A stretch of DNA of 64,000 bases from Thermoanaerobaculia bacterium (GTDB taxonomy: Bacteria > Acidobacteriota > Thermoanaerobaculia > Gp7-AA8): NCBI GenBank assembly GCA_046594105.1, contig JBKJQB010000010.1, forward strand, positions 14,096 through 78,095. Reading direction: 5' to 3'. The notes under the pieces were generated by a model that was given only the letters and a program-made list of their open reading frames with translations, ran no database searches and had not been told where the DNA came from. A program made the translations under genes and the position numbers. Of the stretch, positions 1,525-53,809 are shown piece by piece. Within the stretch, counting starts at the first letter, position 1. Each line of letters begins with the position of its first letter.

Positions 1525-1887
1525 CTACGGAATCGGTGTGGCGAGAGGCTCCTCGAGCCGGGGCGGCGTGTTGACGACGTAGCGCCGCACCTCAGTCTCC
1601 ATCTTCCCGGCCATCATCAGGAAGAGCATCCGGTAATCCGCGACCAGCGAATACACCGGGTGACCAAAACTCGCTGGCTTGTTCCTCTCCACGAACCAGT
1701 GGGCGTACCAGGCGAAGGCATATCCGACCAGCGGCACGGCGATCAGAAACCACAAGCTCACCGCGAATGCGATTCCCAGCGTGACCACAGACAACACCGA
1801 GCCGATCGCGTGCAGAACCCTCGTTTTCTCCCGGGCATGGGCGCGGACGTACTGCGGCCAGAACTCTGCGAAACTCAGAATTTTCAT
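1525..1887 (-). CDS. DUF962 (Mpo1-like) membrane protein
   Basis: MKILSFAEFWPQYVRAH... N-terminus and two TM helices, typical of the DUF962/YGL010w family. Start chosen at the internal MKIL. Confidence 0.55.
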   Translation of the reverse strand: MKILSFAEFWPQYVRAHAREKTRVLHAIGSVLSVVTLGIAFAVSLWFLIAVPLVGYAFAWYAHWFVERNKPASFGHPVYSLVADYRMLFLMMAGKMETEVRRYVVNTPPRLEEPLATPIP

Positions 1888-1950
1888 GGGTTGATGGCTG
1901 AAATTCTCCCACGGACCCGCGTGGCACTTCAATTGCTCGGTTTTTCAAGC

Positions 1951-2193
1951 ATGCCCAACGACTTCGAACAAACACTGAAAGACCTTTTCGGCGAGCCACT
2001 CAGCCGCCTTTCGCAGTTTCAGGGCGAGCAGATGCAGAAGCTGCAAACCAAGCTTCAGGAACTGGCGCGGGAAGCGATCAAGGAAGACCTCGGCAAGCTC
2101 CACACCGAGCTCAATGAGCTGCGGAGCCGGGTGGTCGTGCTGGAGTCCGAACGCCTCCAGAAGGCGGCAGACGGACTCCAGTCGTCGTTCTGA
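1951..2193 (+). CDS. Hypothetical small coiled-coil protein (80 aa)
   Basis: ATG at 1951. Heptad-rich sequence (KLQTKLQELAREAIKEDLGKLHTELNELRSRVVVLESERLQK). Convergent with the MglA-like gene. Confidence 0.35.
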   Translation: MPNDFEQTLKDLFGEPLSRLSQFQGEQMQKLQTKLQELAREAIKEDLGKLHTELNELRSRVVVLESERLQKAADGLQSSF

Positions 2194-2336: not shown

Positions 2337-3386
2337 TCAACCCTTTGCCAGTGCCGCCTTCAGTTTCTGTTCGTGAGCTCGTGCTCGATCCAGTGCCTGT
2401 TCGAGCGCTCTGACCATCTCGGAGGCACCTTCCAGCACGCCGCTCATGTCGGGGAGATCCGGGCTGGCGTCGTGGGTGTCCTCACGCGGCGCCGCGAAAG
2501 GATTTTCCGCGGAGCTGGCATGTCCACTGAGGTCCTCGGCCTCGCCGAATGGATCGTCCTCTTCCGGCTCGAAGGTTTGCGCCGGCGAGGGGGCAGCGGC
2601 CCGCGGCGGAGTGGGGACGTCGGTCAGCGTGCGCCGGGCAGGCTCTGGCGATGGCGCCGGAGTCGTCGGGACAGGTTCTGCTGCGCCGCCGAAAGTATTT
2701 TTCATGGAGAGCTTCGCACTGCCCGCCGAGGAGTTGGTCACTCCCGCCTTGACGCTCATGTCCGGTCGTTGCAGCTCCGGTTCGTCGTACAGAACGGTGT
2801 CGACGTTGTTCTTGAGGTTGTCGAGAATGCGGGTGACCGCGGCGCGCAGCGTGGCCGTGACCCCGACGCCGGTGATGGCCGAGGCTTCCACGACGGCGGC
2901 GTTGCCGGGATGCAGGTAGGCGGTCATCTCGTCGACCGAGTCGACATTGGGCAGATCGCGTTTGTTGTACTGGAACACCATGGCCACTTTCTGCGGGTCG
3001 ATCCGGTTGAGTTTGAGGTTCGTCCGCAGATTCAGCAGGCTGTCGAGATTGGACTCATGCATGGACTGCTGCGAGTCCGCCACGAACACCACGCCGTCGG
3101 CGCCGCGCAGCACGAGCTTGCGTGTGGCGTCGTAGAAAACCTGGCCGGGAACGGTGTACAGCTGCACGCGAACTTTCTGTCCCGCGATCGTGCCCAGTTC
3201 CATCGGCATGAAGTCGAAGAAGAGGGTCCGATCGGTCTCCGTCGACATCGAGATCATCTTGCCCTTGTTGTCGAGTTTTGGGTTGGAGTAGATCTTCTCG
3301 AGATTGGTCGTCTTCCCGCACAAACCGGGGCCGTAATAGACCAGTTTGACCGTGATCTCGTTGATGGCCTTGTTGATCAGAACCAT
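2337..3386 (-). CDS. MglA-family small Ras-like GTPase with a long C-terminal low-complexity/coiled-coil extension
   Basis: P-loop YYGPGLCGKTT, switch II TVPGQVFYDATRKL, and G4 NKRD all present. Strong similarity to the M. xanthus MglA core. A ~170-aa Pro/Ala/Glu/Asp-rich tail ends in a coiled-coil segment. Confidence 0.8.
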   Translation of the reverse strand: MVLINKAINEITVKLVYYGPGLCGKTTNLEKIYSNPKLDNKGKMISMSTETDRTLFFDFMPMELGTIAGQKVRVQLYTVPGQVFYDATRKLVLRGADGVVFVADSQQSMHESNLDSLLNLRTNLKLNRIDPQKVAMVFQYNKRDLPNVDSVDEMTAYLHPGNAAVVEASAITGVGVTATLRAAVTRILDNLKNNVDTVLYDEPELQRPDMSVKAGVTNSSAGSAKLSMKNTFGGAAEPVPTTPAPSPEPARRTLTDVPTPPRAAAPSPAQTFEPEEDDPFGEAEDLSGHASSAENPFAAPREDTHDASPDLPDMSGVLEGASEMVRALEQALDRARAHEQKLKAALAKG

Positions 3387-3527
3387 GAACCGACTCCTCC
3401 TGGGGGACCGGTCACAGATTAGCACTACGACTGGCGCGGACCAGCCGCCGGCCCGGCGGACAAACCTGTTCCCGGAAAATTGGAGGCGATCCCTGCGCCG
3501 AAAGTGGCGGGTCCGGCGATCGGGACC

Positions 3528-7601: not shown

Positions 7602-7799
7602 AGCGGCCGGCATTGGCGGTGCACCGAGCCACCCATGCCCGTTCGCTTTCGAACCTCCGGTTGCCTCTTCAGCATCATCGCCTCGGTGGTTCTGACCATC
7701 GCGCTCAACCTGATGCAGCGCGGTTGTCGCTAACCCGCTCCGTCTGAGATCCACCGCAAGCCGTACCGTTGAGTCGCCGCCCGAAGTACCATCGCTCGT

Positions 7800-9290
7800 T
7801 TGAACTCCACGGGACAGCGTCGCAGGATCGCGCTCGTCGCTGCGGGGGCCGTCGCCCTTCTCGCGTGGTTTCTTTTCCTGCTCTCGCGAACCTCGATGGC
7901 TGCGGCCGGTCCGGACGGCTCGGGCTACATGAACGAAGCGCGCATGATCTCCGACGGCCGCCTTCGCATGGAGATCTCCCCACTGCGCACGCTGGGGCTG
8001 GATCGCAGCTTCGCGAACGTGTTCACCCCTCTCGGTTTCAACGTTGCTCCCGAGGGCACGATGGTCCCCACCTATCCCGCTGGGTTCCCGCTGCACATCG
8101 CGCTGGCGGCACGACTGGGCGGCTGGAAGACCGCGGCGTTTGCCATTCCGCCGCTCGCCTCCGCCGGGTGTCTGCTGATGATCTTCCTCGTCGCTTCCCA
8201 GCTCGGGCTGGGACGCGGCTGGGCCATCAGCGCGGCGCTCGCCCTCGCCGCCTGCCCGGTGTATCTGATGCATTCGCTCCAGCAGATGAGCGACGTGCTG
8301 GCCACGTTCTGGACGCTGGTGGCCCTCTGGTGCGCGCTCCGTGCGAACGAACGCGCTGACCGTCGCATGCTGCTCGCGGCGGGGGCGGCGTTCGCCATCG
8401 GTGTGTGGGTCAGACCGACCAACGTTCTGGTAGCCCTGCCGCTGGCCTTCGCGCTGCGATGGCGTCCCTCGCGACTGGCGATCGCGGCTGCCGCGGCGCT
8501 GCCGTTCGCTCTCGGATTGATGTGGTGGAACGCAGCGCTTTACGGCAGTCCGATTTCGACCGGCTACGGAGGGTTCGGCCAGGTCATCGACTGGTCGGCC
8601 CTGAGAACCTGCCCTCCGCGCTACGGCACCTGGCTGCTGGAGATGGTCACGCCGTTCATTTTTCCCACCGGCCTGCTCGTGGTATTCGATCGACGAGTCG
8701 GACGATGGAACCGCTCTCTGCTCGGTGTCTGGTTCCTCACCTACTTCGCCTTCTACTCGGTCTACAGCGTCTGCGACTCCTGGACGTACACACGATTCCT
8801 CCTTCCCGCTCTTCCCGCCTTGATCATCGGCGCACTGTTCGTGATGCGGGATCTCCTCGCTGCGCTGGCGGGAGTGCGGTGGATCGCGGTCGCCCGTGGA
8901 GTGGCCATCCTGCTGATCCTGGCCACCCTCACACTGCAGATTCGGAGTGATGATCGCCGCGACCTCCTGCACACCCGGCGCGGTGAAGCGATCTACCCCG
9001 ACGTCGTGCATTTGACCGAAGCGACTGTTCCCCGCAATGCCATCGTCATCAGCGGCTTGATGAGTGGTTCGTTTCTCTACTACAAGGGCCGCTTCACGGT
9101 CCGATGGGATCAGATCGACAACGATCAGTTCCAGCTATTGAGAGCCTACGCCGCGAACGCCGGTCTGCGATGGTACGCAGCGTTGTCGGACGTGGAGTTG
9201 AGCCCGGAGGACCTGCCCAGGAGGTTCGACGCGCAGTGGAAGTCTCTCGGCAGAGTTCGTGACGTCACGCTATGGGAGCTGAAGGACTAG
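7800..9290 (+). CDS. GT-C fold membrane glycosyltransferase (GT39/ArnT/PMT-like)
   Basis: About 12 TM helices over ~496 aa. An early loop motif YMNEARM resembles the DE(A/S)R motif of the PMT/ArnT family with D->N. Start uncertain. Confidence 0.5.
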   Translation: MNSTGQRRRIALVAAGAVALLAWFLFLLSRTSMAAAGPDGSGYMNEARMISDGRLRMEISPLRTLGLDRSFANVFTPLGFNVAPEGTMVPTYPAGFPLHIALAARLGGWKTAAFAIPPLASAGCLLMIFLVASQLGLGRGWAISAALALAACPVYLMHSLQQMSDVLATFWTLVALWCALRANERADRRMLLAAGAAFAIGVWVRPTNVLVALPLAFALRWRPSRLAIAAAAALPFALGLMWWNAALYGSPISTGYGGFGQVIDWSALRTCPPRYGTWLLEMVTPFIFPTGLLVVFDRRVGRWNRSLLGVWFLTYFAFYSVYSVCDSWTYTRFLLPALPALIIGALFVMRDLLAALAGVRWIAVARGVAILLILATLTLQIRSDDRRDLLHTRRGEAIYPDVVHLTEATVPRNAIVISGLMSGSFLYYKGRFTVRWDQIDNDQFQLLRAYAANAGLRWYAALSDVELSPEDLPRRFDAQWKSLGRVRDVTLWELKD

Positions 9291-9996
9291 GCCGGGCCGG
9301 CACGGCCGGCGGCGTTGGTTGCCCAAGGCTCCGCCGTGATCACGCTCCAAGACGTTCTTCCGCGCAGGCCCTAGGAGAGAAGGAAACCAGAAAGCGGAAA
9401 GTGGAAGGCAGAAAGCCCTGAGCAATGGACAGCGCGCACGCTGCGCCTGAGAGAAAGAAACGGGCGCGGAGGCAGAGCGCCGGAGGCGCGATTGACCTTA
9501 GCCCAGGACTTCAGTCCTGGGACTTGAGGGGCTCCCCCAGACGAGTCCCGGAGGGACGATTGACGATGCTTCGTTGCGACATGTTCAATCGTCCCTACGG
9601 GACTTACTTTTTAGGGGCATCAAACCCAGGACTGAAGTCCTGGGCTAAGTTCAATCGTCCCTACGGGACTCGCAAATCCGCATAAAACCTGGCTGTTTCT
9701 GGGAAGCGGCGTGGGGTGGCGGGCGGGAAGCGAAGGATCTGCAATCACGCGAATGCCGCTTGCGACAGTCGGGGCGATGCAGATCCTTCGCCGTCTACGC
9801 GGGCTCTAATGAACTCTGGTCCGAGGCATCAAGAGGATCGAACTCACACCCGCGACGTTGCAGATCCTTCGCCGTCTTCGCGGCTCAGGATGACGGGAGG
9901 GATCTTGCAGCCGGCAGGATTACCTTCTGATTTCTGCTTTCTGCTTTCTGGTTTCTGCTTTTCCGCCTCCCCGCGCACTTGACCTAGAATCCATCG

Positions 9997-10752: not shown

Positions 10753-12258
10753 TCATCCTTCGCGAATTCGTAGGGTGATCGCTTCGGCAACTTCCTCCGG
10801 GTGCGAGAAGGTGCAGGCGTGCGCCCCGGCCACGAGTTGCAGCGCAGGAATCTCCTCGCGGCGCACCAGCGGATCGCGCTCGCCGGCGAGCAGGAGCCCG
10901 TCCTCCGGCGCAGCACGCCGCACATCCCGGACATAGCGCCGATAGGTGCGAAACCACCGGCCGAGACCGGTACGCCAGTACGCGTGCGCCACCTGCGCCA
11001 GAAGGGCGAAAGGCTCGCGGATGGCGTCGGTGAAGAGAGCTGGGAAGAGCAGCATGGGGTGACGATGCGTCCACAACGGTCCGATGAACACCGCGGCCTT
11101 CACCAGATCGGGACGCAGAGCTTTGAGATGCTCCACGTCGTTGCATCCGACGGAATGGCCGATCCAGGTCGCGCCGCGGATGGAGACGGCATCGGCCCAG
11201 CGCGCCAGGATCGCTGCGTGGTCCTGAGGTCCCACCGCAGGGCCGTCCGCACTGGCACCGAAGCCGGGAAGATCGGGAGCAATCGGATTCCAGCCGCGTT
11301 CGAACAGCGCGCGGGCAAACGGCCGGAAGTACGCGCTCGACATGCCCAGGCCATGCACCAGGACAACATCCTTGCCGCGACCCGCGGCACGATGGGCGAC
11401 GCCGTCAGTCCAGCCGGAGAGGGCCCACGAAAACTCGGGGGCGGCGTCCGATCGCACCGCCTCCACCTCATCCAGAAACGCGAACAGCTCGCGGTGGAAG
11501 GCCTCCGGGTTCTCCCACATGGGGATGTGGCCGGCGTTCTCGATGACTCGCAGCCTCGCGTTCGGAATCTCCTGCAGCATCTGCTGGCCGTAGGACAACG
11601 GCACCAGCGGATCGTTCGCTCCCCAGAGCAACAGCACCGGCAGTCGCAGCGCCCGCAGAAGCGGCCGCGCGTCATCGCGGAGCAGACGGGTGAACGCGAC
11701 GGCCACCGAGGTCGGCCCGGCGCGGAAAAGATCGCGGGCCAGCACCGTGGCGAACGACCAGGCGCCGCGCGGGACCATCAGATTGGCCAGATGCGGTGCG
11801 GGATGCAGTTCGAAGGGAATGCCGGTCGAGTCGACCAGAACAAGCGAGCGGACCAGGTCCGGCCGCGAGGTCGCCAGGTGAATGGCGATCTGCCCTCCCA
11901 TCGAGTTTCCCACGATGTGCACCGGCTCGCGGAACGACGCTTCGATCCACCGCGCCAGCAATGCCGCGATCTCGTCGAAGTTCAACGGCAGGGAGCTGCG
12001 CCGAAGAAAAAAGCGGTTGCGCCCGAATCCGACCAGGTCCACGGCGCTGACTTGAAAGCGTTCCGCAAGCACATCGAGATTCCGGCGCCACCAGTCGGAA
12101 GATCCGCCCAGCCCGTGAATGAGGATCAACGGCGGACCGGCACCGGCTCGCGTCTCCCAGAAACTGTACGGCGGCAGATCGACCCGTCGCGTTTCTGCCA
12201 CGTCAGCGTGAGCCTGAGAAAATCGAACGGGGCGCCGCCATCTTGTCGCCCGAGCCAC
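10753..12258 (-). CDS. Tandem alpha/beta-hydrolase fusion protein (two complete hydrolase folds)
   Basis: Domain 1: HGLGGSS ... GNSMGG ... AGHIPMWE. Domain 2: VHGLGMSS ... GHSVG ... GAHACTFSHPEE. Each has its own Ser-Asp-His triad. Confidence 0.7.
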   Translation of the reverse strand: MARATRWRRPVRFSQAHADVAETRRVDLPPYSFWETRAGAGPPLILIHGLGGSSDWWRRNLDVLAERFQVSAVDLVGFGRNRFFLRRSSLPLNFDEIAALLARWIEASFREPVHIVGNSMGGQIAIHLATSRPDLVRSLVLVDSTGIPFELHPAPHLANLMVPRGAWSFATVLARDLFRAGPTSVAVAFTRLLRDDARPLLRALRLPVLLLWGANDPLVPLSYGQQMLQEIPNARLRVIENAGHIPMWENPEAFHRELFAFLDEVEAVRSDAAPEFSWALSGWTDGVAHRAAGRGKDVVLVHGLGMSSAYFRPFARALFERGWNPIAPDLPGFGASADGPAVGPQDHAAILARWADAVSIRGATWIGHSVGCNDVEHLKALRPDLVKAAVFIGPLWTHRHPMLLFPALFTDAIREPFALLAQVAHAYWRTGLGRWFRTYRRYVRDVRRAAPEDGLLLAGERDPLVRREEIPALQLVAGAHACTFSHPEEVAEAITLRIREG

Positions 12259-12309
12259 AAGACCATTTCTTCACGAGGTCCGAAGAAGAGACTCGTGTCG
12301 ACCGCGGGC

Positions 12310-12753
12310 TCACCGGTGCAGTCGCGCCTCTTCGACCATCAGACAGCGGTCTTGCACCACCTTGATCCCGGCTTCCGCAAATCGCTTCGCCGCCTCGTCG
12401 TTCCGGATGCCCAGCTGCAGCCAGACGCTGTTCGGCTTCGCCGCCAGGATGTCGTCCACGTGCGGCGGGATGTCGTTCGGGCGGCGGAACACGTTGACCA
12501 TGTCGATCGGACGCCCGATGTCCGCCACCTGCCGGTAGACGCGCTTTCCCAGGATCTCGGTGACCTCGGGGTAATAGACCGGGACCGGAATGATCTCGAA
12601 GCCGGCCGCAGCCATATGGGCGGCCACGTAGTGCGCTGCCTGATCGGCGTGGGTCTCCGGTTTGATGCCGAGCACGGCAATGGTGTGCGTCTCGCGAAGG
12701 AGTCTCTCGATTCCATCCCCGTCGTTGATCAGATTTGTTTTCCAGTCAGCCAT
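12310..12753 (-). CDS. CoA-binding domain protein (YccU-like)
   Basis: IAVLGIKPETHADQAAHYVAAHMAAAGFEIIPV... Rossmann-like CoA-binding fold, 147 aa. Start at MADWKT. Confidence 0.65.
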   Translation of the reverse strand: MADWKTNLINDGDGIERLLRETHTIAVLGIKPETHADQAAHYVAAHMAAAGFEIIPVPVYYPEVTEILGKRVYRQVADIGRPIDMVNVFRRPNDIPPHVDDILAAKPNSVWLQLGIRNDEAAKRFAEAGIKVVQDRCLMVEEARLHR

Positions 12754-12924
12754 CGATTGCTCCTCGCCATCCCGTCTGAGGGGGCGCAGACTAGCAAAAA
12801 CTGAGCGCGGCCAATCCGCCGACTTGCCAAAAGTACACGGAATAACTAATTGCCACCGACCGCTTTTATACGACAAATTCAAGTCACTCCAACCCAAAAT
12901 CCAACCATCGAGGTGGGCCTCCGA

Positions 12925-16213: not shown

Positions 16214-16351
16214 GGTGGGGAGAGGCGCAGCCGCCTCTCCTCGTCCGCCGCGCAGAAAGTCCCGGCGCATCCGGCTCTCGTTGGATTCCAGTTGCACATT
16301 TCAGGGCTGACGAGTAAAAGTCGTCGGTCCCAGGTCGCCGAAGAAGAGGAG

Positions 16352-19300
16352 ATGTTCATGCGCCGGTTCACGAAAGTCTTTGCCGTGAGCACCTTTCTGT
16401 TTGCCGGTTTCGCTTCGTCGGTCCACGCTCAGTCCGCGGACCTCCTCGTCTCGAAAAGCGGACCGGCCAGCGCGAATGCCGGGACCAACGTTCCCTACAG
16501 CGTCTCGGTGATGAATCTTGGACCCGACAACGCGACATCGATCACCCTCACCGATCCCATCCCGGCCGGCATGACCTTCGTTTCGGTCACCCAGAACGGT
16601 GGCCCCGCGTTCTCGTGCACCTTCCCAGCGGTCGGCGCCGGGGGCACGGTCAGCTGCACCGCGGGAACCCTGACCTCAGGCTCTACAGCAACTTTCACGT
16701 TCGTCTTTCAGATCTCCCTGATGACGCCTCCCGGCACCATTTTCACCAATACCGCTACCGTGATGACGGCGACCTTGGACCCCAACAGCGAGAACAACTC
16801 GAGCATCGCCTCCACCCAGACGCCGCCACCGCCCCAGAGTGATCTCTACGTCAGCAAGAGCGGACCGGCAAGCGCAGGTCCGAATACCAACGTGACCTAC
16901 CTGATCACCGCAGGGAACGCCGGTCCCGACACGGCGATGAGCGTATCCCTGCAGGACACGCTTCCCGGGAACATGACCTTCGTCTCCCTGACCCAGACTT
17001 CAGGGCCGGCGTTCATCTGTTCAAAACCAGCGGTCAACTCCGGAGGAACGGTCACCTGCACCATCGCGTCGCTCAACGCCGGCGTCAGCGCCTCGTTCAG
17101 CCTGGTCACCCAGGTTCCAACAGGCACCCCATCGGGTACCTCCTACGCGAACAACGCGAGCATCTCTTCCGCGACCGCGGACCCGAATGCGGAGAACCAA
17201 GTCTCCGGTAGCATCACCGTCGTCGTGGTGGCCGACGTTTCTGCTACCAAGACCGCGTCCCCGACGGCGACTGCTGGGGGAACGGTCACCTATGTCGTCA
17301 CGGCCACGAACGGCGGCCCTGATCAGGCGAACAATGTGGCTCTTCAGGATCCCCTGCCCGGTGGGGTGACCTTTGTGTCCGCAACCCAGAACAGCGGTCC
17401 GGCCGGAGGGTGCAGCACCAACACGACCGGCGGGACCACCACCGTCTTCTGCTCCATCAGCGCTCTGGCATCGGGTGCCAGCGCACAGTTCACAATCGTC
17501 GGGACCATTCCTTCGACTGCAACCGGCACGCTCAACAACACCGTGACCGTCTCCACCGACAGCTACGATTCGAATCTGGCCAACAACAGCGCCACTGCTT
17601 CCACAGCGGTCACCACATCCGCAGACCTCGCGGTCACCAAAAGCGCACCGGCAACCGCAGTCACCGGAGCGAACGTCACCTATACGATTTCCCTCACGAA
17701 CAACGGTCCCTCCTCCGCGAGCACGGTGTCGCTGAGCGATGTCCTCCCAGCCGCAACGACGTTCGTCTCCTCCACTCAGAACAGTGGGCCGGCCTTCACT
17801 TGCAGCACTCCCTCTCCCGGGGCCAGCGGCTCCATCACCTGCACCGCGGCGACCCTGGTGTCGGGAACGACAGCGACCTTCAGTTTCGTGGTCCAGATCG
17901 CCGCCTCCACGCCGGCGGGCAGCGTCATCAGCAACACCGCGAGTGTTTCCTCCTCCACTTCCGATCCAAACGCCGGAAACAACAGCGCTACCGCCTCGAC
18001 GACCACCAGCGTCTCTTCGGACGTCTCGGTAAACAAGACCAGCCCGGCCACCTCCGCGGCAGGATCCAACATCACCTACACCATCACGGTGACCAACGGC
18101 GGCCCATCCACCGCCACCACGTTGTCTCTCAGTGATCCACTGCCAGCGAACGTCACCTTCGTCTCGGAGTCGCAGACCAGCGGTCCGGCATTTGTCTGCG
18201 CGACACCAGGCATCGGTGCCACCGGGACGATCACCTGCACTGCCGCCACCCTCGCCCCCGGCGCATCGTCCGTGTTCAGCCTGGTGGTGAAGCTCGACCC
18301 AGCAGTCGCCAGCGGAACCACAACCTCGAATACGGCGGCCATCAGCTCAGGCAGTGCCGACTCCAATCCTGCCAACAACTCTTCGACCACAACGGTCACG
18401 GCCAGCCAGTCGGCCGATCTCTCGGTCTCGAAGACGGGATCGGCCACGGTGACTGCCGGCTCGAACATCACCTACAGCGTGTCCCTGACGAACAATGGTC
18501 CCTCGAACGCGGCCACGGTCTCGCTCAGCGACGCCATCCCCGCCAATACCACGTTTGTCTCCGCAGCGCCCACCAGTGGCCCCGTTTCCGGTCCAGCCTT
18601 CACCTGCACGTCGCCTGCGGTCGGCGGGACGGGCACGATCGTCTGCAGCGCCCCCTCGTTGATTGCCGGCGGCTCGGTCGTTTTCAGCATCGTCGTGAAG
18701 ACCTCACCGGGGGCCAACGGCACGGTCATCTCGAACACCGCTTCGGCGGCCTCAGCGACGCCGGACCCGGTCCCGGCAAACAACAGCTCGACGTTCGGCA
18801 CCTCTGCCGGCGCCGTGGCCGATCTTGCCATCGTCAAGACAGCGCCGGCCACAGCGATCGCCGGCAGCAACCTCACCTACTCCGTGACCTTGACCAATAA
18901 CGGCCCGTCCGATGCGGCAGGGGTCACCTTCACCGATGCAATCCCCGCGAACGCCACCTTCTTCTCCGAGGCGCAGACCAGCGGGCCGGCGTTCACCTGC
19001 ACACTCCCCGCAGCCGGCGGTTCCGGAACGATTTCGTGTACCTCGCCGATCCTGGCGACTGGAGCTTCTGCGATCTTCAGCATCGTCGTTCGCAGCAGTC
19101 CTGCAGCACCGAGCGGCACCGTGATCAGCAACACGGTGACCACTTCATCAGTCAGTACAGACTCCACTCCAGCGAACAACACCTCGACGGCGACGACCAC
19201 CGTGTCGACCTCCGCCGACCTCGGAATCACCAAGACCGGACCGGCGAGCGCCGGGGCTGGAAGTGACATTTCTTACGCGCTCACGCTCACGAACTTCGGC

Positions 19301-19693
19301 CCGTCCGACGCGGCGGCCGTGTCGCTGACGGACACCCTGCCGGCGAACGCAACCTTCGTTTCCGCAACCCAAACCGGCGGCCCTGCCTTCAGCTGCACCA
19401 CCCCCGCACCGGGCGGAACGGGATTGGTCCTGTGTACCGCCCCCTCGCTGTCCGCCAGCTCGGTGGCCACATTCAACGTGGTGATTCGTCTCCCCATCAA
19501 CACACCGGTCGGCACGGTCATCACCAACAGCGCATCGGTCTCCTCGACGACGGCCGACGCCAATCCGGCGAACAACACGGCGAGCATCTCCACCACCTCG
19601 TCCACAGCGATTCCAACCCTTTCGCCTCTCACACTGGTTCTTCTCGGACTCGGCCTGGCCGCCGTGGCCGCCGTGGTTCTGCGCGGGAACTGA
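16352..19693 (+). CDS. DUF11 (conserved repeat domain) tandem-repeat surface protein with C-terminal IPTL-CTERM sorting signal
   Basis: Signal peptide, then about 10 repeats of ~110 aa (DLxVSKSGPASA...NVTYxISxTNNGPS...TFVSxTQNSGPAFxC...GTITCT...DPNxxNNS). C-terminus TSSTAIPTLSPLTLVLLGLGLAAVAAVVLRGN has IPTLS, a TM helix and a basic end. Confidence 0.75.
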   Translation: MFMRRFTKVFAVSTFLFAGFASSVHAQSADLLVSKSGPASANAGTNVPYSVSVMNLGPDNATSITLTDPIPAGMTFVSVTQNGGPAFSCTFPAVGAGGTVSCTAGTLTSGSTATFTFVFQISLMTPPGTIFTNTATVMTATLDPNSENNSSIASTQTPPPPQSDLYVSKSGPASAGPNTNVTYLITAGNAGPDTAMSVSLQDTLPGNMTFVSLTQTSGPAFICSKPAVNSGGTVTCTIASLNAGVSASFSLVTQVPTGTPSGTSYANNASISSATADPNAENQVSGSITVVVVADVSATKTASPTATAGGTVTYVVTATNGGPDQANNVALQDPLPGGVTFVSATQNSGPAGGCSTNTTGGTTTVFCSISALASGASAQFTIVGTIPSTATGTLNNTVTVSTDSYDSNLANNSATASTAVTTSADLAVTKSAPATAVTGANVTYTISLTNNGPSSASTVSLSDVLPAATTFVSSTQNSGPAFTCSTPSPGASGSITCTAATLVSGTTATFSFVVQIAASTPAGSVISNTASVSSSTSDPNAGNNSATASTTTSVSSDVSVNKTSPATSAAGSNITYTITVTNGGPSTATTLSLSDPLPANVTFVSESQTSGPAFVCATPGIGATGTITCTAATLAPGASSVFSLVVKLDPAVASGTTTSNTAAISSGSADSNPANNSSTTTVTASQSADLSVSKTGSATVTAGSNITYSVSLTNNGPSNAATVSLSDAIPANTTFVSAAPTSGPVSGPAFTCTSPAVGGTGTIVCSAPSLIAGGSVVFSIVVKTSPGANGTVISNTASAASATPDPVPANNSSTFGTSAGAVADLAIVKTAPATAIAGSNLTYSVTLTNNGPSDAAGVTFTDAIPANATFFSEAQTSGPAFTCTLPAAGGSGTISCTSPILATGASAIFSIVVRSSPAAPSGTVISNTVTTSSVSTDSTPANNTSTATTTVSTSADLGITKTGPASAGAGSDISYALTLTNFGPSDAAAVSLTDTLPANATFVSATQTGGPAFSCTTPAPGGTGLVLCTAPSLSASSVATFNVVIRLPINTPVGTVITNSASVSSTTADANPANNTASISTTSSTAIPTLSPLTLVLLGLGLAAVAAVVLRGN

Positions 19694-34322: not shown

Positions 34323-34937
34323 ATGGTCGACCGGCACGTAGCGGCCAGAGGGGTGCGCGACGCGCGGGTGCTGCAAGCCATGCGCGATGTGCCTCGGCAC
34401 CTGTTCGTCCCTTCCGTGATGGCGGCGAAAGCTTACGGGCCGGGAGCCCTCCCCATCGGCTCCAAACAAACCATTTCGCAGCCCTACATCGTGGCCAGGA
34501 TGATCGAGCTCCTGGATCTGAATGGCTCGGAGAAAGTCCTGGAGATTGGCACGGGAACGGGATATCAGGCCGTAGTCCTGTCGAAGCTATGCGCCAAAGT
34601 GTTTACTATCGAACGCCTCCCCGAACTGGCCATGCGCGCTGCCGAGCTGTTTCGCGATCTCAAAATCCACAATGCCAGCGTGAAGGTGTTCGACGGAACC
34701 TACGGATGGTCGGATCAGGCCCCCTTCGACCGGATCATCGTTGCCGCTGCAGCTCCGGCCGTTCCCGAACCGCTGGTCCAACAGCTTTCCCGAACGGGCA
34801 AGCTCGTCATTCCGGTGGGCCCGGAAGGCTCGCAGCGTCTGGCGCGCGTCACGCGGGTGGGCACAGGCGTGCAGATCGAAGACTGCGGCGGTGCGGAGTT
34901 CGTACCCCTGGTCGGAAAATTCGGCTGGAAGGAGTGA
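34323..34937 (+). CDS. pcm: Protein-L-isoaspartate O-methyltransferase
   Basis: VLQAMRDVPRHLFVP, TISQPYIVARM and VLEIGTGTGYQAVVLS motifs. The classic surE-pcm gene pair. Start could be as early as 34254, which would overlap surE. Confidence 0.85.
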   Translation: MVDRHVAARGVRDARVLQAMRDVPRHLFVPSVMAAKAYGPGALPIGSKQTISQPYIVARMIELLDLNGSEKVLEIGTGTGYQAVVLSKLCAKVFTIERLPELAMRAAELFRDLKIHNASVKVFDGTYGWSDQAPFDRIIVAAAAPAVPEPLVQQLSRTGKLVIPVGPEGSQRLARVTRVGTGVQIEDCGGAEFVPLVGKFGWKE

Positions 34938-34941
34938 GGCG

Positions 34942-35439
34942 TTGAAAGCGCGGACGCTCCTCATGGCCACCGCGATCGTCTCCTCCATTCTGGGGGCCGC
35001 CGTGGCCTACCTGGTCCTCACCGTTCCCAACGACATCAACGCTGCGGCGCTTTTGCGCAGGGCTCGAAAGGAGCTCGGCGAAGGCAATCGCGACGAGGCG
35101 CGCAAGGATCTTTCCAACCTGATCCAGCAATTCCCCCGTACAGATGCTGCGGGCGCGGCCACGGTGGCCCTGGCCTCCATCGCCGACAGCGAGCGTCACG
35201 GGCTGCAGAAACAGCTGGAGAATCTGCGGCGCGATGCGGCCGCCGACCGCAAGCAGATGGCTGCGCTTCAGACCCGGGTCGGACTGCTCTCCATGGCTGC
35301 GCCGGTGCCAGCGGCCGCTCCCCCCGCGCCCGTTCCGGTCCCTTCCCCGGCATTGAATATTGCGGCCCCTCCGAAGAAGACCGCGGCCCAGCCGCCGGTG
35401 CCTCATCGCGCGCGGTCCCATCGCCGCCGACGTCATTAG
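34942..35439 (+). CDS. Hypothetical membrane-anchored protein (N-terminal TM, TPR-like/coiled-coil middle, Pro/Ala-rich basic tail)
   Basis: TTG at 34942 with GGAG 7 nt upstream. Alternative start is ATG at 34963. No recognisable family. Confidence 0.35.
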   Translation: MKARTLLMATAIVSSILGAAVAYLVLTVPNDINAAALLRRARKELGEGNRDEARKDLSNLIQQFPRTDAAGAATVALASIADSERHGLQKQLENLRRDAAADRKQMAALQTRVGLLSMAAPVPAAAPPAPVPVPSPALNIAAPPKKTAAQPPVPHRARSHRRRRH

Positions 35440-35481
35440 ACCGGCGAGAGAGGTGGTCGTTTGCGCGTACAATCTGCCGCC

Positions 35482-35760
35482 ATGGCCAAAGAACAACGCC
35501 TCATCCGCATTCAGGGGAAAGTCCAGGGCGTGGGCTATCGATTCTTCGCCACCCGCGTGGCCCGGCGGCTCGGGCTGAAGGGCTCCATCCAGAATCTGCG
35601 CGACGGAACCGTGGAAGCGGTGGTGGAAGGGGAAAAGACTTCCATCGATGAGTGGATCGAGGAGCTCCGCGAGGGGCCCCGGTACGCCGAAGTCGTCACC
35701 ATCGAGCAGGAATCGAAAGACTTCACGGGCAAGCTCCCCGACTTCGACGTCAAGTTCTGA
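35482..35760 (+). CDS. acyP: Acylphosphatase
   Basis: VQGVGYR signature and GxVxN (LRDGTVEAVVEG). 92 aa. Confidence 0.8.
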   Translation: MAKEQRLIRIQGKVQGVGYRFFATRVARRLGLKGSIQNLRDGTVEAVVEGEKTSIDEWIEELREGPRYAEVVTIEQESKDFTGKLPDFDVKF

Positions 35761-35770
35761 GACCGACCGA

Positions 35771-36283
35771 ATGGATCTGCGATCTCTGATCCGCGACATC
35801 CCGGACTTCCCGAAACCGGGGATCGTTTTCAAGGACATCACTCCGCTGCTTCGCTCGCCCGGAGCTCTCCACTACGCCGGCGAAGCGATGGCCGCACCGT
35901 TTCGCGATCAAAACATCACCGCCGTCGCAGCGATCGAATCGCGCGGATTCATCTTCGGCGCGGCGGTCGCTCACATCCTCGGAGTCGGATTCGTCCCCAT
36001 CCGCAAGCCGGGAAAGCTTCCGTTCAAGACGCGACGGAACGAGTACACACTCGAATACGGCAGCGGGATTCTGGAAATCCACGATGACGCGCTCACTCCG
36101 GACGATCGCGTCCTGATTGTCGACGACGTGCTGGCCACCGGCGGCACCGCCTCCGGAGCAGCGGCCCTGATCCGCGACTTCGGAGCGGCGATCGCCGGCG
36201 CATCCATGCTCATCGAGCTCGCTTTCCTGGACGGCCGCAAGTGCCTGCCCGGGTTGCAGATTCGCTCCCTGATCACCTACTGA
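35771..36283 (+). CDS. apt: Adenine phosphoribosyltransferase
   Basis: MDLRSLIRDIPDFPKPGIVFKDITPLL... and the PRPP-binding motif VLIVDDVLATGGT. Confidence 0.9.
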   Translation: MDLRSLIRDIPDFPKPGIVFKDITPLLRSPGALHYAGEAMAAPFRDQNITAVAAIESRGFIFGAAVAHILGVGFVPIRKPGKLPFKTRRNEYTLEYGSGILEIHDDALTPDDRVLIVDDVLATGGTASGAAALIRDFGAAIAGASMLIELAFLDGRKCLPGLQIRSLITY

Positions 36284-38434: not shown

Positions 38435-41338
38435 CTATCGCGGAACGTCCTGCAACGCTGTGCGAATCTCCTGTTGCTGACGTCGAAGCAGGTCAGATAG
38501 CGGCTGGAACCTCGCATCGCTGCGCAGAAATCCGAAGAGGGGATTGGCCAGTACGTAGCTTGCGGTTGGCTCCTGTCGCGCCGCGGCGCGCTCGAGCGCA
38601 TCGAAGGTGCCGCCGACGTCCCCCCGCAGCGCGGCAATTTCTGCGACGCTGGTCCGAAAGTCGTCGCCGGGCCGCGAGAGCGCTTCCGCAGCCTTCAGTT
38701 CCAGGCTGGCCTCCGCGGTCGCGTGGGCCTCCGCGGCCAGGTACGCCTTCACCAGATGCACCCCGTAGTCAGCCTGCAGCCTCTGCAATTGCTTCAACTC
38801 GGTCTCGGCGATTTCCTTTGAGTGGCGCAGGACAGCAATCCGGCCGATTTTCAAACGAAGCGCCGGGTTGTTCGGAGTCTTCAGCTCTTCGTCGTAGTAC
38901 TGCGTGACCGCGGCGTCGATCTTTCCTGAGGCGGCAAGGCTGTCGGGACCGTGAAGCTCGGATTGATCGCGTGACGCCAGGGCCCGCAGGCAGGCCGCAA
39001 AGGTCTTTCCGTCGCCCACTGCAAGCGCGTACTTGCCAACCACGTTCAGCGCCTCGAGATCCTGACGGTCCCCTTTGAGAATGGTCGCGTAGGCCCGCAG
39101 GGCGGACGGCGCATCTCCAGCCTTCAGTGCGGCATGAGCCACCATCCTGGCCGCGTCAAGGTTGGCCGGGTCGAGGGAAGAGATCTGCTTCGCCAGGATC
39201 ACGGCATCTGCGTCTTTGCCCCGCTCGGCGAAGAACCTCATCGCTACGATCTGGGCGGGCAGCAGAGCGGGATCCGCTTTCATCGACGCTCTGAGCGCCG
39301 TCTCCGCTCTCCCATCGTCTTTTGCCGCGATCGCTTCCACCGCTTCGGCAAAAGCATTGCCCGCCTCTGCGGTCGCCGTCGTTTGCCGGTGCAGCCTGAT
39401 CTCCGCGACCACCAGCCCTACCATCGACTGCACGCCGCTCCATGCATCAGGAAACGGAACTGCCGTTCCTCGCTTCCCGGCCGCTCCCGTCGGAACGATT
39501 TGCGCCGCAGCGCCTCCTCCACGCACGTCCGCAGTGAACGCGCTGACATCAGCACCCGGGGAATCGACCACCCTCAACTCAGGGTACGTCCGCAGGACCT
39601 CGGCGACGCTCTTGCGAACGTTGTCAGCTCGCTGCTGCATGGCTGCATCCGCAGGCTCGACGTGGAAGGGCGAAACCATCACCTTCCGCGGATTGGAGGC
39701 GGAGGCCACCATCAACCCAGTGCCTGCTGAGGCCGTGGGGACCGAAACGGCCGGCCGCCGCATGAAGAACACCGCAGCGACGAGAAGGAGCACCACTGCC
39801 GCACCGGCGACCATCGCCAGCCGCATGCGTTTCCGCTTGCCCTCCGCAATCGCTTTTGCGGCCGATTCCGCCGCAACAGCCTCCGCTTCCGCAGCAGCGA
39901 TCGTCGCCGCTTCTGCCGCCTTGGGTTTCGGCTTCGTCTCTTCCACAGGAGCCAGCTCATAAAGCTTGACGCCGGCGCGCGCGCCGGCGTCCCGCATGCG
40001 CACGTTGCCTCGCCCTCGCTTCACAAACTCCTCTGTCACGAATAGCTGCAGGGGCTCCAGGTGCGTCAGGACCTCGCGGGACTTCTCAACAGCCCTCCCC
40101 ACGACCACTCCCTGCTCCATGCCCACTTCCCCTGCATGGAGCAGCATGCGCACCGGGATAAACTCGGTACCTTGCTGCTCCAGAGAAAAATCAAATTCTC
40201 CCTTGCGACCTGCTTCCAGAGCGCGTTCGACGTCAGGAAGCTCGGCGATCATGTGCGGACCGAAGGGATCCAGCACGTTTCCATCAAACAGGTACACCGC
40301 TTCCCCGAGGATCTGCTGCATGCGGGCCGCCGCGCGAACCGCCGATGCGGGATCCACCCTCATCAGCTCGTCGTGATTGGCGATGTCGGCAATGAAGATG
40401 ATCGCGTTGCGCATCGAGTCCGACACTGCCGACGCTGCCACTGCCGCTCCGTTACCCTGGCTGGACAGGGAGGCCGCCGCCCGGGACACCTCATTGGCAA
40501 ACTTCACGGAGCCGGGGTCCATGCGCACGATCTCGTCGACCAGGGACTTCGCGTCTTTCTGCCGCTTGAACGGATCCCTGAACAGACACTTGCCCATGAC
40601 CGACAGGACGGCGTTGTCGATGCCTGGATGGATCGACTTCGGCGAGGGCGGATTCTCTTCCATGATCTTCCGGGCCACCTCGGCTGCGGTTTCGGCGAGG
40701 TATGGCGCCCGTCCGGTCGCCATTTCGTAGAGCACGATGCCCGTCGAGAAAATGTCTGTCAGCGGTGTCAGGGCCTGACCGCTGATCTGCTCCGGCGCCA
40801 TGTACGCGACGGAGCGCAGATCACTGCCGCGCTGCTGGTACGTCGTGCTCTCTCGCTTAGCCATGAGGTTGGAAACGTTCAACCCGGCCAGCCTCACCTG
40901 CCCACTGGCCGCGATCAGTACCGAATCGCCGGCGATGTTGCCGTGGATGACTTCCTTGGCGTGCAGAAGCTTCACCACGTCGGCCAGTTGATAGGCCATG
41001 TGGAAAAAGTCCTCCCGGCCGGCCGGCTTCCCTCGAACGATCGCCGACAGCGGTTTCGATTCGAACCAGTCCATGACCAGGAGCAACACTTCGCCGGCGG
41101 CGGTCAACTCGATGATGTGCACCAGCGAGGTGTGGTACAGGGCAGCACCGAGACGCACGTCGCGGATCAACGCTTCGCGCCGGACGGGATCACGCGGCAA
41201 CTGTTTGGTGAGAATCTTGAGGGCGACCTTCTTGCCGGTCCGGGTGTCTTCAGCCGACCAGACCGAGGGGCCTACCCGATCAAGCAGCCGATACGAGAGG
41301 ATCGTATTTCCCGGAGAGAATGGATCGACGGCAGACAT
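38435..41338 (-). CDS. Membrane protein: degenerate Ser/Thr kinase domain, degenerate class-III cyclase domain, TM segment, periplasmic/TPR-like region
   Basis: Kinase fold with VALKIL Lys and APE (YMAPEQ) retained, but HRD->HGN (VIHGNIAGDS) and DFG->GLN (RLAGLNVS). The cyclase-like segment FIADIANHDEL...LFDGNVL...RMLLHAGEVGMEQGVVVGRAVEKS lacks the second metal Asp. TM helix LAMVAGAAVVLLLVAAVFF. C-terminal Ala-rich TPR-like repeats. Confidence 0.75.
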   Translation of the reverse strand: MSAVDPFSPGNTILSYRLLDRVGPSVWSAEDTRTGKKVALKILTKQLPRDPVRREALIRDVRLGAALYHTSLVHIIELTAAGEVLLLVMDWFESKPLSAIVRGKPAGREDFFHMAYQLADVVKLLHAKEVIHGNIAGDSVLIAASGQVRLAGLNVSNLMAKRESTTYQQRGSDLRSVAYMAPEQISGQALTPLTDIFSTGIVLYEMATGRAPYLAETAAEVARKIMEENPPSPKSIHPGIDNAVLSVMGKCLFRDPFKRQKDAKSLVDEIVRMDPGSVKFANEVSRAAASLSSQGNGAAVAASAVSDSMRNAIIFIADIANHDELMRVDPASAVRAAARMQQILGEAVYLFDGNVLDPFGPHMIAELPDVERALEAGRKGEFDFSLEQQGTEFIPVRMLLHAGEVGMEQGVVVGRAVEKSREVLTHLEPLQLFVTEEFVKRGRGNVRMRDAGARAGVKLYELAPVEETKPKPKAAEAATIAAAEAEAVAAESAAKAIAEGKRKRMRLAMVAGAAVVLLLVAAVFFMRRPAVSVPTASAGTGLMVASASNPRKVMVSPFHVEPADAAMQQRADNVRKSVAEVLRTYPELRVVDSPGADVSAFTADVRGGGAAAQIVPTGAAGKRGTAVPFPDAWSGVQSMVGLVVAEIRLHRQTTATAEAGNAFAEAVEAIAAKDDGRAETALRASMKADPALLPAQIVAMRFFAERGKDADAVILAKQISSLDPANLDAARMVAHAALKAGDAPSALRAYATILKGDRQDLEALNVVGKYALAVGDGKTFAACLRALASRDQSELHGPDSLAASGKIDAAVTQYYDEELKTPNNPALRLKIGRIAVLRHSKEIAETELKQLQRLQADYGVHLVKAYLAAEAHATAEASLELKAAEALSRPGDDFRTSVAEIAALRGDVGGTFDALERAAARQEPTASYVLANPLFGFLRSDARFQPLSDLLRRQQQEIRTALQDVPR

Positions 41339-41372
41339 ACAGGGAAGTATAGATGGCTGGCGGCCCCATCTG

Positions 41373-41876
41373 TCATGAAGGATCGATCTGAATGAGCTCC
41401 GCTCCACTGTCGACCGTATCGCCGATCCCCACGAAGACTTCGGTGACGATTCCATCCGCAGCGGAGGCAATCTCGTTCTCCATCTTCATCGCTTCGAGAA
41501 CGAGCAGCGCGCCACCTTTGCTTACGGAATCGCCTTTCTTCACCAGGACACGGACGATGCGACCGGGCATCAGTGCTCGAATCAACCCTCCGGCGGCAAC
41601 CTCGTCCTCTGTTCTGCTACGTTTCACGGAGAGTGGATCGGTGATCTCGACATGAATCGACGATGCCAGAAGTGTGATCTCGTGCATTGCACCGCTGCGA
41701 TGATCGATCAGCGAGAACTGCCGCCCATCCTCGAGCCGGAGAGACTGGATATGGCCACCCGCGGTCACCAGATCCGCCGTGATCATCTTTCCGTCGACGA
41801 TCACCCGATACCCGGCGCCGACGCGCTCCACTTCAATGGCCATCTCGCGGCCGTCATGGCGGGCCACCAGTTTCAT
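41373..41876 (-). CDS. accB: Biotin carboxyl carrier protein (biotin/lipoyl attachment domain)
   Basis: Biotinylation motif EAMKMENEI near the C-terminus. ATGA coupling to the upstream biotin carboxylase. Start chosen at MKLVA. Confidence 0.7.
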   Translation of the reverse strand: MKLVARHDGREMAIEVERVGAGYRVIVDGKMITADLVTAGGHIQSLRLEDGRQFSLIDHRSGAMHEITLLASSIHVEITDPLSVKRSRTEDEVAAGGLIRALMPGRIVRVLVKKGDSVSKGGALLVLEAMKMENEIASAADGIVTEVFVGIGDTVDSGAELIQIDPS

Positions 41877-52724: not shown

Positions 52725-53344
52725 TTGTTGAAGGGCGTCCTGCCCCAGAGCGGCGTGACCGTTGCCGTGAACTGGTCTTTTGGGAACATCTTCCGGATCG
52801 ACTCCTGCGTCGGGAATTCGAGCCTCTCTGCGCGCAGCCATCGAGTGGCCCGGGCAAAGGCTTCGGCCAGCCAGGTGACCCCGAATCGCCAGGACTCATC
52901 GCGGATCGCGTCGCGGAGAATGGCCACTCCGCCCGGCGCCACAGAATCGGCGACCTTGCGCAGAATGACTGCCTGCTCCTGCTGCGTAAAGTAATGAAGT
53001 ACATCCAGCATGACCACGCTGCCGGAAAAACCAGGAAGCTCCCGGATGTCGCCCTCCCGGAATTGCAGATGCTCACTGGGCCGAACCATCCGTTCGGCCA
53101 CGTCGATTTTGCGGCGGTCGTGGTCGATCCCCTCGATGGCAACAGTCAAACCATGTTCGCGCAGAAAAAAAGCGAGGACGCCGGCGCCGCATCCGAGATC
53201 AAGAATCGGGTTTCGCACGTCTCGGAGATTTTCCAGCACAGCGCGATAAACGGGATCGGTGCGAATCTTGGTACGGACGTACGAGCGCAGAAAGTGTGAC
53301 GGATATCGGGCTGCCACCTTTGCTGCGATGTCGTCGGAGCTCAC
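52676..53344 (-). CDS. Class I SAM-dependent methyltransferase
   Basis: Motif I ILDLGCGAGVLAFFL and the post-I acidic residue (GIDHD). 222 aa. Its 3' end overlaps the convergent deacetylase gene by 49 nt. Confidence 0.75.
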   Translation of the reverse strand: MSSDDIAAKVAARYPSHFLRSYVRTKIRTDPVYRAVLENLRDVRNPILDLGCGAGVLAFFLREHGLTVAIEGIDHDRRKIDVAERMVRPSEHLQFREGDIRELPGFSGSVVMLDVLHYFTQQEQAVILRKVADSVAPGGVAILRDAIRDESWRFGVTWLAEAFARATRWLRAERLEFPTQESIRKMFPKDQFTATVTPLWGRTPFNNYLLVFRRSSAGMTNE

Positions 53345-53775
53345 GGAGAGAGATGCTCGATCAAGTCGATCAGCTCCGGAAGGTTGAAGGGCTTCGGGAG
53401 AATTGCCGAAACACCCATCTGCAGCACTGCTTGCGGGTCGATCCGCAGATGAGCGGAGACCACGATGATCGGAGTTTTGCCGAGTTGGCCCGTTTCCTTG
53501 AGCCGTGCCAGAAAGTCCCAGCCGTTCACGTCCGGCATGGCCAGATCCAGCAGAACCACGTGCGGCTGGTGGAGCGTCAACGCCCGATGCCCCTCCCCCC
53601 CGTCTCCCGCCAGCAGAACCTGAAAACCATGCTGGCGCAGCGCCGCTGCGAGCATTCCTCGGAGGGGAAGATCGTCGTCGATCACAAGAATCCGCTTGCG
53701 ATCGACATCGGCGACCTGCTTCGCCCCTGCGCTGTTCTGAGGCTCCATCTGACTCATCGAAAGGCTCGTTCCCAC
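53341..53775 (-). CDS. Single-domain CheY-like response regulator (receiver only)
   Basis: ILVIDDD...VVLLDLAMPDVNG...PIIVVSA has the phospho-acceptor Asp and acidic pocket. No output domain. Confidence 0.8.
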   Translation of the reverse strand: MGTSLSMSQMEPQNSAGAKQVADVDRKRILVIDDDLPLRGMLAAALRQHGFQVLLAGDGGEGHRALTLHQPHVVLLDLAMPDVNGWDFLARLKETGQLGKTPIIVVSAHLRIDPQAVLQMGVSAILPKPFNLPELIDLIEHLSP

Positions 53776-53809
53776 TGCTGCTGAGACCGTTATGCAGGGA
53801 CAGCGCCAG

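Follow-up and report, generated by a model that had tools for sequence, protein, structure and literature searches.

A conserved long-tailed subfamily of MglA-type GTPases in Acidobacteriota, with no mglB gene nearby and with a motif-bearing C-terminal tail

The 64-kb stretch of DNA analyzed here from a Thermoanaerobaculia bacterium (contig JBKJQB010000010.1; hereafter the window) carries, at 2337–3386 on the reverse strand, a complete gene whose 349-residue product is, as judged from its sequence, a Group-1 MglA-type Ras-like switch GTPase belonging to a conserved and previously undescribed long-tailed subfamily. Among the Ras-like polarity switches of bacteria, MglA has been studied best, and nearly all knowledge of it comes from Myxococcus, Thermus, and Bdellovibrio. 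What distinguishes the protein described here, called tailed MglA below, is a near-canonical G domain permanently joined to a disordered tail that bears short motifs, together with the consistent absence of mglB from the gene neighborhood. In the literature searched, this tail is nowhere described, and no paper names MglA together with Thermoanaerobaculia; in databases, the homologs are named either 'MglA' or, in many JGI entries, 'SRP receptor beta'. The reading that we favor, with somewhat better than even confidence, is that the tail is a flexible tether that sets location and partner choice, the hydrolysis of GTP being controlled in trans.

The open reading frame (ORF) starts with an ATG at 3386 and ends with a stop codon at 2337–2339, and its homologs cover about 100% of its length. 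This start is supported by the N terminus MVLIN, which is invariant among the 120 homologs of tailed MglA, and by a Shine-Dalgarno-like AGGAGGAG read from the sequence at 3394–3401 (reverse strand), 7 nt 5' of the ATG; an alternative GTG start at 3425 would add 13 residues that are not conserved. Residues 1–192 (2811–3386, reverse strand) form the G domain, which aligns with Myxococcus xanthus MglA over 192 residues without gaps and with 58% identity. It is near-invariant in the 120 family members, with a ratio of nonsynonymous to synonymous substitution rates (dN/dS) of 0.02 to 0.04, a value which, like all such ratios given below, is rough because it was obtained against two relatives at about 80% identity with dS near saturation. 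An earlier note on this DNA had proposed an MglA-family GTPase with G-domain motifs nearly identical to those of Myxococcus, and this proposal holds, all signatures being present. A phmmer search against the PDB returned MglA proteins as its top four matches (M. xanthus, 5ymx/6izw/6h17, E of about 5e-65; Thermus, 9e-52), and the Pfam scan gave only generic Ras, GTP_EFTU, Arf, and Roc matches and NCBIfam only 'small_GTP'. An identity as SRP receptor beta was rejected, since the Arf match falls below its cutoff (21.8 versus 22.3 bits) and the best solved relatives are all MglA; the name given by JGI seems to be a generic product of automated annotation.

The P-loop GPGLCGKT with Gly21 is present and invariant in the 120 family members, and so are T78-VPG-Q82 (TVPGQ), with a Thr in place of the G3 Asp and the catalytic Gln82, the intrinsic arginine finger Arg53, with STETDRTLFFDF identical in M. 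xanthus MglA, and N141-KRD (141–144). The bacterial-type insertion between G1 and G2, a feature of the MglA family (PMC4316618), is present as well, the alignment to M. xanthus MglA being ungapped over residues 27–52. Leu64, Ile67, and Arg181 align with the allosteric pocket of M. xanthus MglA, and Arg186 adjoins the position of Lys185; in the family, Leu64 and Arg181 are invariant, Ile67 is at least 90% conserved, and Arg186 is largely conserved. Across the family, hardly any variation is seen in the switch and beta2 regions. All the sequence-defined features of MglA Group 1 that were tested are therefore present, and GTP binding and hydrolysis, along with the nucleotide-dependent beta-screw, would be expected of the protein. 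An MglA of the Bdellovibrio type, not dependent on any GTPase-activating protein (GAP), with Ser or Ala at position 21, was considered and rejected, Gly21 being invariant in the 120 sequences.

Past residue 195, where canonical MglA ends, the 349-residue protein continues for another 154 residues, with a net charge of −13 and a composition of 12% Pro, 16% Ala, and 18% Asp plus Glu. The earlier note had described an acidic, Pro-rich tail of about 170 residues ending in a coiled coil; the acidity, the Pro content, and an amphipathic heptad helix at the very end are confirmed, but the length is 154 residues. The tail begins with a post-G segment of 38 residues (193–230; 2697–2810, reverse strand; NNVDTVLYDEPELQRPDMSVKAGVTNSSAGSAKLSMKN) that is gap-free, with a column conservation of 0.74 to 0.92 and a dN/dS of about 0.10. 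Its consensus in the family is NVDTTLhdEPELxaPDMSaKSGVTxxSAGTPKLSMK, with P208, G215, S220, A221, and L226 invariant, and AlphaFold2 predicts no fold at 212–235, where the predicted local distance difference test score (pLDDT) is below 50. There follows a variable Pro/Ala-rich linker (residues 231–270; 2577–2696, reverse strand) with a conservation of 0.23 to 0.45, 24 to 51% gaps, and a dN/dS of 0.26 to 0.35. Next comes an acidic region with short motifs (residues 271–312; 2451–2576, reverse strand), namely EEDDPFG (DDPFG at 2544–2558) and ENPFA (2493–2507), with a dN/dS of 0.38 to 0.60; P279, F280, and F297 are invariant in the family, and D278, G281, and P296 are at least 90% conserved. The central 83 residues (231–313) have a net charge of −13 and contain 20% Pro and not a single Lys. 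Between two and four [DENS]PF motifs occur per tail, in 120 of 120 tails.

The C-terminal amphipathic heptad helix (residues 313–349; 2340–2450, reverse strand; dN/dS of 0.21 to 0.25) is the part of the tail that AlphaFold2 models with confidence (helix 314–348, pLDDT of about 94). In the window sequence, its 3-4-3-4 heptad pattern is made of L318, A321, V325, L328, L332, A335, E339, L342, and L346, and the positions L318, A321, V325, L328, E329, A331, L332, A335, and E339 are at least 90% conserved. Its hydrophobic moment is 1.29, versus 0.52 ± 0.26 for shuffled sequences, a value reached by only 2 of 1000 shuffles. In the same model, built from the alignment of 120 sequences and with a mean pLDDT of 61, scores are low from about residue 205 to 310, consistent with disorder. 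Across the family, the length of the tail ranges from 122 to 197 residues when counted from residue 186. In the shortest members (e.g., that of locus L076), the linker is almost gone, while the post-G segment, the PF motifs, and the helix are retained.

The coding signal persists throughout the tail, with a GC content at third codon positions (GC3) of 0.71, and its dN/dS is about 0.25 overall and 0.10 to 0.60 in all its segments, compared with 0.02 to 0.04 for the G domain. Given these segment values, the tail is translated and under purifying selection. The suspicion that it might be an artefact of one contig, created by a gene fusion, by read-through across a frameshift, or by a chimeric assembly, was prompted only by the compositional bias of a tail without a Pfam domain, and no evidence in its support was found. 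With the GC3 and the purifying selection just mentioned, and with the same architecture recurring in at least 120 protein clusters and in 71 genomes that each represent a species, it is practically impossible, and we rejected it; the presence of the tail in all homologs makes it a feature of the family and not a local fusion.

All of the 120 best database homologs are tailed, with 307 to 382 residues, about 100% query coverage, and 60 to 84% identity; the 120 or more protein clusters stem from NCBI, JGI, ENA, and Logan assemblies. A profile of the tail alone, searched with one genome per species, retrieved 71 loci, all from metagenome-assembled genomes labeled Thermoanaerobaculia or Acidobacteria(ota) and including two complete chromosomes (OY970284.1 and OY970380.1); most of these loci were matched over the whole tail and five over its first 45 residues or so only. 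The earlier note had held that orthologs lacking the tail would speak against its reading, and none was found among these 120 homologs and 71 loci. Even where tails share only about 40% identity overall, the positions that make up the PF motifs and the helix are either invariant or conserved to at least 90%. Among 1.84 billion representative proteins, the tail profile matched only 76, which makes the tail a family-specific module; the 12 of them that were inspected are family members or fragments, with the exception of one HEAT-repeat protein, and the rest are mostly of 42 to 190 residues. In the collections searched, the long-tailed subfamily is confined to Acidobacteriota, and mainly to the class Thermoanaerobaculia. 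No second MglA-like gene was found in the window or in any of the loci, and no second copy of the terminal-helix motif in other ORFs of the window or of the loci.

The HEAT-repeat protein just mentioned (P0202, 213 residues, locus L079, 1013–1654, forward strand) ends in the helix of the MglA tail (LASAQQLVFSLEAALDQARRHEEEIRARL) and is encoded directly upstream of the methyltransferase gene that normally follows tailed mglA, hence in the syntenic position. This single example is either a domain swap that retained the helix or a chimeric metagenome contig of 2.2 kb.

The second distinguishing trait of the subfamily concerns MglB, the roadblock-type partner of MglA. No Robl_LC7/MglB domain was detected by Pfam among the small ORFs called in the window, including the three that flank tailed mglA, and M. 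xanthus MglB used as query in tblastn and phmmer searches of the six-frame translated 64-kb window gave a best E of about 1, which is noise; as a control of sensitivity, Thermus MglB was detected with that query at 3e-17. Likewise, a search of 83 related loci (1.23 Mb) with M. xanthus MglB revealed no MglB/roadblock gene, the precomputed Pfam annotation of the neighbors on seven contigs contains no Robl_LC7 (PF03259), and no MglB was found in the syntenic relative L080 in the region that lies past the left end of the window. The source contig measures 78,280 nt, of which the window leaves out about 14 kb. The absence of an MglB partner from the neighborhood, which the earlier note had pointed out, thus extends from the window to the 83 related loci.

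Because there is no MglB within four genes of tailed mglA, the subfamily is 'orphan' according to the published definition, in which MglA and MglB are coupled when MglB lies within four genes (Wuichet & Sogaard-Andersen 2014). This status is not exceptional, since 59 of the 449 MglA-family proteins catalogued in that study are orphan and many of them exceed 195 residues: in its Table S2, many Group-1 orphans, SofG included, are 220 to 430 residues long, and the acidobacterial entries only 194 to 196. Longer orphan MglA paralogs such as SofG are hence already known, and the novelty here is the family-specific conserved C-terminal tail. A GAP encoded elsewhere is plausible for tailed MglA, because the protein retains Gly21, Arg53, and Gln82 as well as the residues of beta2 on which a roadblock GAP acts.

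Could the tail itself stand in for the missing partner? In M. xanthus, the C-terminal helix of MglB (Asp150–152, Asp154, and Phe157) binds Lys181, Lys185, Leu64, and Ile67 of MglA, the Glu-rich helix of RomR can substitute for it, and such acidic helices promote nucleotide exchange (PMC6785124). By analogy, the acidic PF motifs or the helix of the tail could bind the allosteric pocket (alpha5 and the beta2–beta3 loop) in cis and mimic the MglB/RomR helix, in which case MglA would be self-regulating, the tail would replace part of the MglB/RomR function, and the switch would be independent of MglB. The conservation of Leu64, Ile67, Arg181, and Arg186 in the tailed family, the occurrence in every member of acidic clusters followed by a Phe (EEDDPFG), and the lack of a nearby MglB in 83 loci all agree with such a scheme. 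However, the tail has no sequence similarity to M. xanthus MglB (hhalign of the tail profile, probability of 0.1%) or to any PDB chain, no match being obtained against the PDB sequences even at E ≤ 10, and the Pro in the PF motifs makes a helix such as the C-terminal one of MglB unlikely there. AlphaFold2 gives the motif region a pLDDT of about 47 to 55 and predicts no docking. Moreover, for MglB to act as a GAP, a roadblock dimer has to sit on the switch/beta2 face, and a disordered tail has no means of providing one; the retained Gly21, Arg53, and Gln82 represent a GAP-responsive configuration, unlike the Ser21 of Bdellovibrio MglA. Finally, the 313-residue MglA of Fibrobacter is still coupled to MglB, so that having a tail does not rule out having MglB. 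Regulation in cis is for these reasons distinctly unlikely in our view. We are also doubtful, and slightly more so, about its fuller form, a self-contained polarity switch in which the PF motifs would fill the Leu64/Ile67/Arg181/Arg186 pocket in cis for exchange while the helix would anchor or dimerize the protein.

Another candidate regulator emerges from the gene context. A gene for a Hanks-type Ser/Thr kinase of about 760 residues with C-terminal TPR adjoins tailed mglA divergently in 29 of the approximately 61 loci for which upstream sequence is available (7650–9935, reverse strand, in L002; 7668–9947, reverse strand, in L001; about 27 further loci), with a gap that is mostly below 150 bp among the loci listed. 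The tail could then be a docking and phosphorylation platform for this kinase: the TPR would bind either the PF motifs or the helix, and the Ser/Thr-rich post-G segment would be phosphorylated by the kinase domain. In addition to the divergent arrangement directly upstream in nearly half of the loci, the near invariance of this segment (SGVTxxSAGTPKLSMK) speaks in favor of a kinase-controlled switch. In M. xanthus, the kinase MasK is an interaction partner of MglA. The binding of a TPR protein has a precedent in Bdellovibrio MglA (PMC3983030). Against kinase control, neither the window nor its close relatives have the kinase gene next to mglA, and the sole kinase of the window (38435–41470) shares 24% identity with the kinase-TPR protein, a generic kinase-domain similarity only. 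Nor is adjacency correlated with whether the post-G segment keeps its TP dipeptide (TP without kinase in 25 loci, TP with kinase in 23), and, because half of the loci lack this neighbor, adjacency may be the inherited synteny of one lineage. Control by this kinase is in our view unlikely.

We return to the reading of the tail as a flexible tether acting alongside control in trans. According to this proposal, the G domain would cycle between a GTP-bound on state and a GDP-bound off state as MglA does, and partner proteins would dock onto the near-invariant post-G segment of 38 residues and onto the multivalent acidic [DE]PF motifs. Through its terminal heptad helix, the protein would self-associate or be anchored on a scaffold, and GTP hydrolysis would be governed not by the tail but by a factor from elsewhere in the genome, be it a roadblock-type GAP without linkage to mglA or some other protein. 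Trans-acting partners of the G domain may well still bind, because the switch/beta2 surface is invariant and Gly21, Arg53, and Gln82 are retained. The conserved motifs and the purifying selection fit the suggestion, already made in the earlier note, that the tail is an interface.

The tail could alternatively be a passive, tolerated disordered appendage of an ordinary MglA working with an unlinked MglB. The fully canonical G domain, a linker that varies in length and in sequence, and a dN/dS that rises to 0.4–0.6 in the acidic segment would be expected from such a protein. This is nevertheless improbable, considering that the post-G segment is conserved almost like the G domain (dN/dS of about 0.10), that the PF motifs and helix positions are kept at the level given above in tails of about 40% identity, and that all three elements persist in the shortest tails.

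Several observations weigh against the tether proposal and temper the confidence that we place in it. No partner of the tail was identified, and the window contains no motility, pilus, gliding, or polarity genes. The MglB searches cover the window and the surroundings of related mglA loci to within about 10 kb. The kinase-TPR gene is not beside mglA in the window or in its clade, so that conservation of the context is partial. Lastly, the motif regions have no confident structure in the AlphaFold2 model. The G domain is modeled poorly over its N-terminal half (pLDDT of about 30), which we attribute to a shallow and nearly invariant alignment; for this reason, nothing is concluded from this model on docking of the tail to the G domain.

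A comparison with known systems helps to situate tailed MglA. With the MglA proteins of M. xanthus and T. thermophilus (PDB 5ymx, 6izw, and 3t12), it shares the G domain, including Gly21, Arg53, Thr78, Gln82, and NKRD, as well as Leu64 and Ile67 of the pocket and a basic residue at 181. While canonical MglA has 195 residues and is encoded in an mglBA operon, tailed MglA has 349 with a conserved disordered tail, no adjacent mglB, and no motility genes nearby. SofG and the long orphan Group-1 paralogs (MXAN_6703, 298 residues; Geobacter, 270–305 residues) are likewise extended and without a linked MglB. SofG is positioned through direct binding to the landmark polymer BacP and offers the closest functional analogy for a localization tail. 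Nonetheless, SofG-type paralogs coexist in the same genome with a canonical 195-residue mglA product coupled to mglB, they have diverged further from MglA in their G domains, and SofG is extended at its N terminus as well, whereas the extension of tailed MglA is purely C-terminal, the alignment to MglA starting at residue 1, and its G domain is near-canonical. Membership in a SofG-like class, defined by an N-terminal extension and an association with a bactofilin landmark, was rejected, as tailed MglA has no N-terminal extension and no bactofilin domain was found among the neighbors in the window or in the related loci.

An MglB partner is likewise lacking for the MglA proteins of Bdellovibrio bacteriovorus and of 'Candidatus Koribacter versatilis', the latter also an acidobacterium, whose genomes have no MglB. 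They are however tail-less, with 194 to 197 residues, and Bdellovibrio MglA has a GAP-insensitive Ser21 (PMC3983030) where tailed MglA has Gly21. In size, the extension is comparable to that of the Group-1 MglA of Fibrobacter succinogenes (Fisuc_0226, 313 residues), but Fisuc_0226 is encoded next to mglB, unlike tailed MglA, and the tail profile searches found no family members outside Acidobacteria. As to architecture only, a disordered stretch rich in Pro, Glu, and Asp followed by a helical element for binding or self-assembly is also found in RomR (linker and Glu-rich C terminus) and in PopZ; these are separate proteins, whereas in tailed MglA the region is fused to the GTPase.

If the tail is indeed an interface for localization or regulation, tailed MglA would be a compact and testable case of a small GTPase wired through short linear motifs in bacteria, a kind of wiring usually associated with eukaryotic GTPases, and would hint at a control of cell polarity or of surface motility in Thermoanaerobaculia. 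Should the doubtful self-contained switch prove true, a whole acidobacterial class could run the MglA cycle without a roadblock partner acting as GAP or guanine nucleotide exchange factor. The practical payoff is modest: a defined subfamily and mutable motifs are added to a known family, and no new kind of system.

Upstream of tailed mglA, on the same strand, lies the gene of a protein with a YkuD_2 L,D-transpeptidase domain (E of 3.4e-61) and, on the other side, a convergent gene of 80 codons, both as stated in the earlier note. The upstream order is kept within the same clade (L005 and L077), with a luciferase-like monooxygenase, DUF1761, and a methyltransferase preceding YkuD_2, and the left end of the window is syntenic with a contig of Thermoanaerobaculia type, L080. 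Downstream of mglA, relatives at about 80% identity (L077 and L078) and most Thermoanaerobaculia have a methyltransferase-bshC-PIG-L-GT4 block, in place of which the window has the 80-residue ORF, an Mpo1-like gene, FabI, and RskA, a block that is located elsewhere in L080. As the window and its relatives differ in the genes that follow mglA, a rearrangement junction lies directly downstream of it, at about 2194–2336. Genes for housekeeping, efflux, c-di-GMP, and cell-surface functions occupy the remainder of the window.

The convergent 80-residue coiled-coil ORF (1951–2193, forward strand; GC3 of 0.78) is a real, conserved gene, with 83 clusters of homologs of 76 to 99 residues at 59 to 91% identity, all from the same acidobacterial lineage. 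The earlier note had proposed its product as a possible partner of the tail, a pairing to which the gene context lends no support. No homolog was found at 79 mglA loci searched, and the gene forms a divergent pair, about 20 to 60 bp apart, with an Mpo1-like (PF06127) membrane-protein gene (1525–1932, reverse strand), a pair that is kept in four other Thermoanaerobaculia contigs (L080–L083), where the other flank is a PHP-domain polymerase or a 2093-residue protein. The product was consequently rejected as tail partner, and because the gene is elsewhere always paired with the Mpo1-like gene, its position beside mglA in the window is incidental.

Some further features of the window, away from mglA, deserve mention. 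In the stretches 53296–54322 and 56321–57253, several ORFs rich in Arg and His and without a Pfam match are dubious products of simple GC3-based gene calling; annotation there is unreliable, and the true genes probably lie in a different frame or on the opposite strand. Three ORFs are coding-like and have no Pfam match at E ≤ 1e-5, namely 10801–12804 (forward strand, 667 residues), 34849–35841 (reverse strand, 330 residues), and 62821–63924 (reverse strand, 367 residues); the first has an unusually high GC content at codon position 1 (0.78) and may be in the wrong frame or encode a low-complexity protein. Two large repeat proteins are encoded at 16292–19693 (forward strand, 1133 residues, eight DUF11 repeats) and at 58674–62645 (reverse strand, 1323 residues, PKD repeats). 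An intergenic region contains two opposed Acido-Lenti-1 RNA motifs (Rfam RF01687) about 100 nt apart, at 9476–9521 (reverse strand) and 9625–9670 (forward strand), with scores of 54.5 and 57.5 bits compared with a gathering score of 37; like the synteny of its left end, they point to an acidobacterial origin of the window. The ORF called over them (9425–9685), which encodes a repeated 'FNRPYGT' peptide, is probably spurious.

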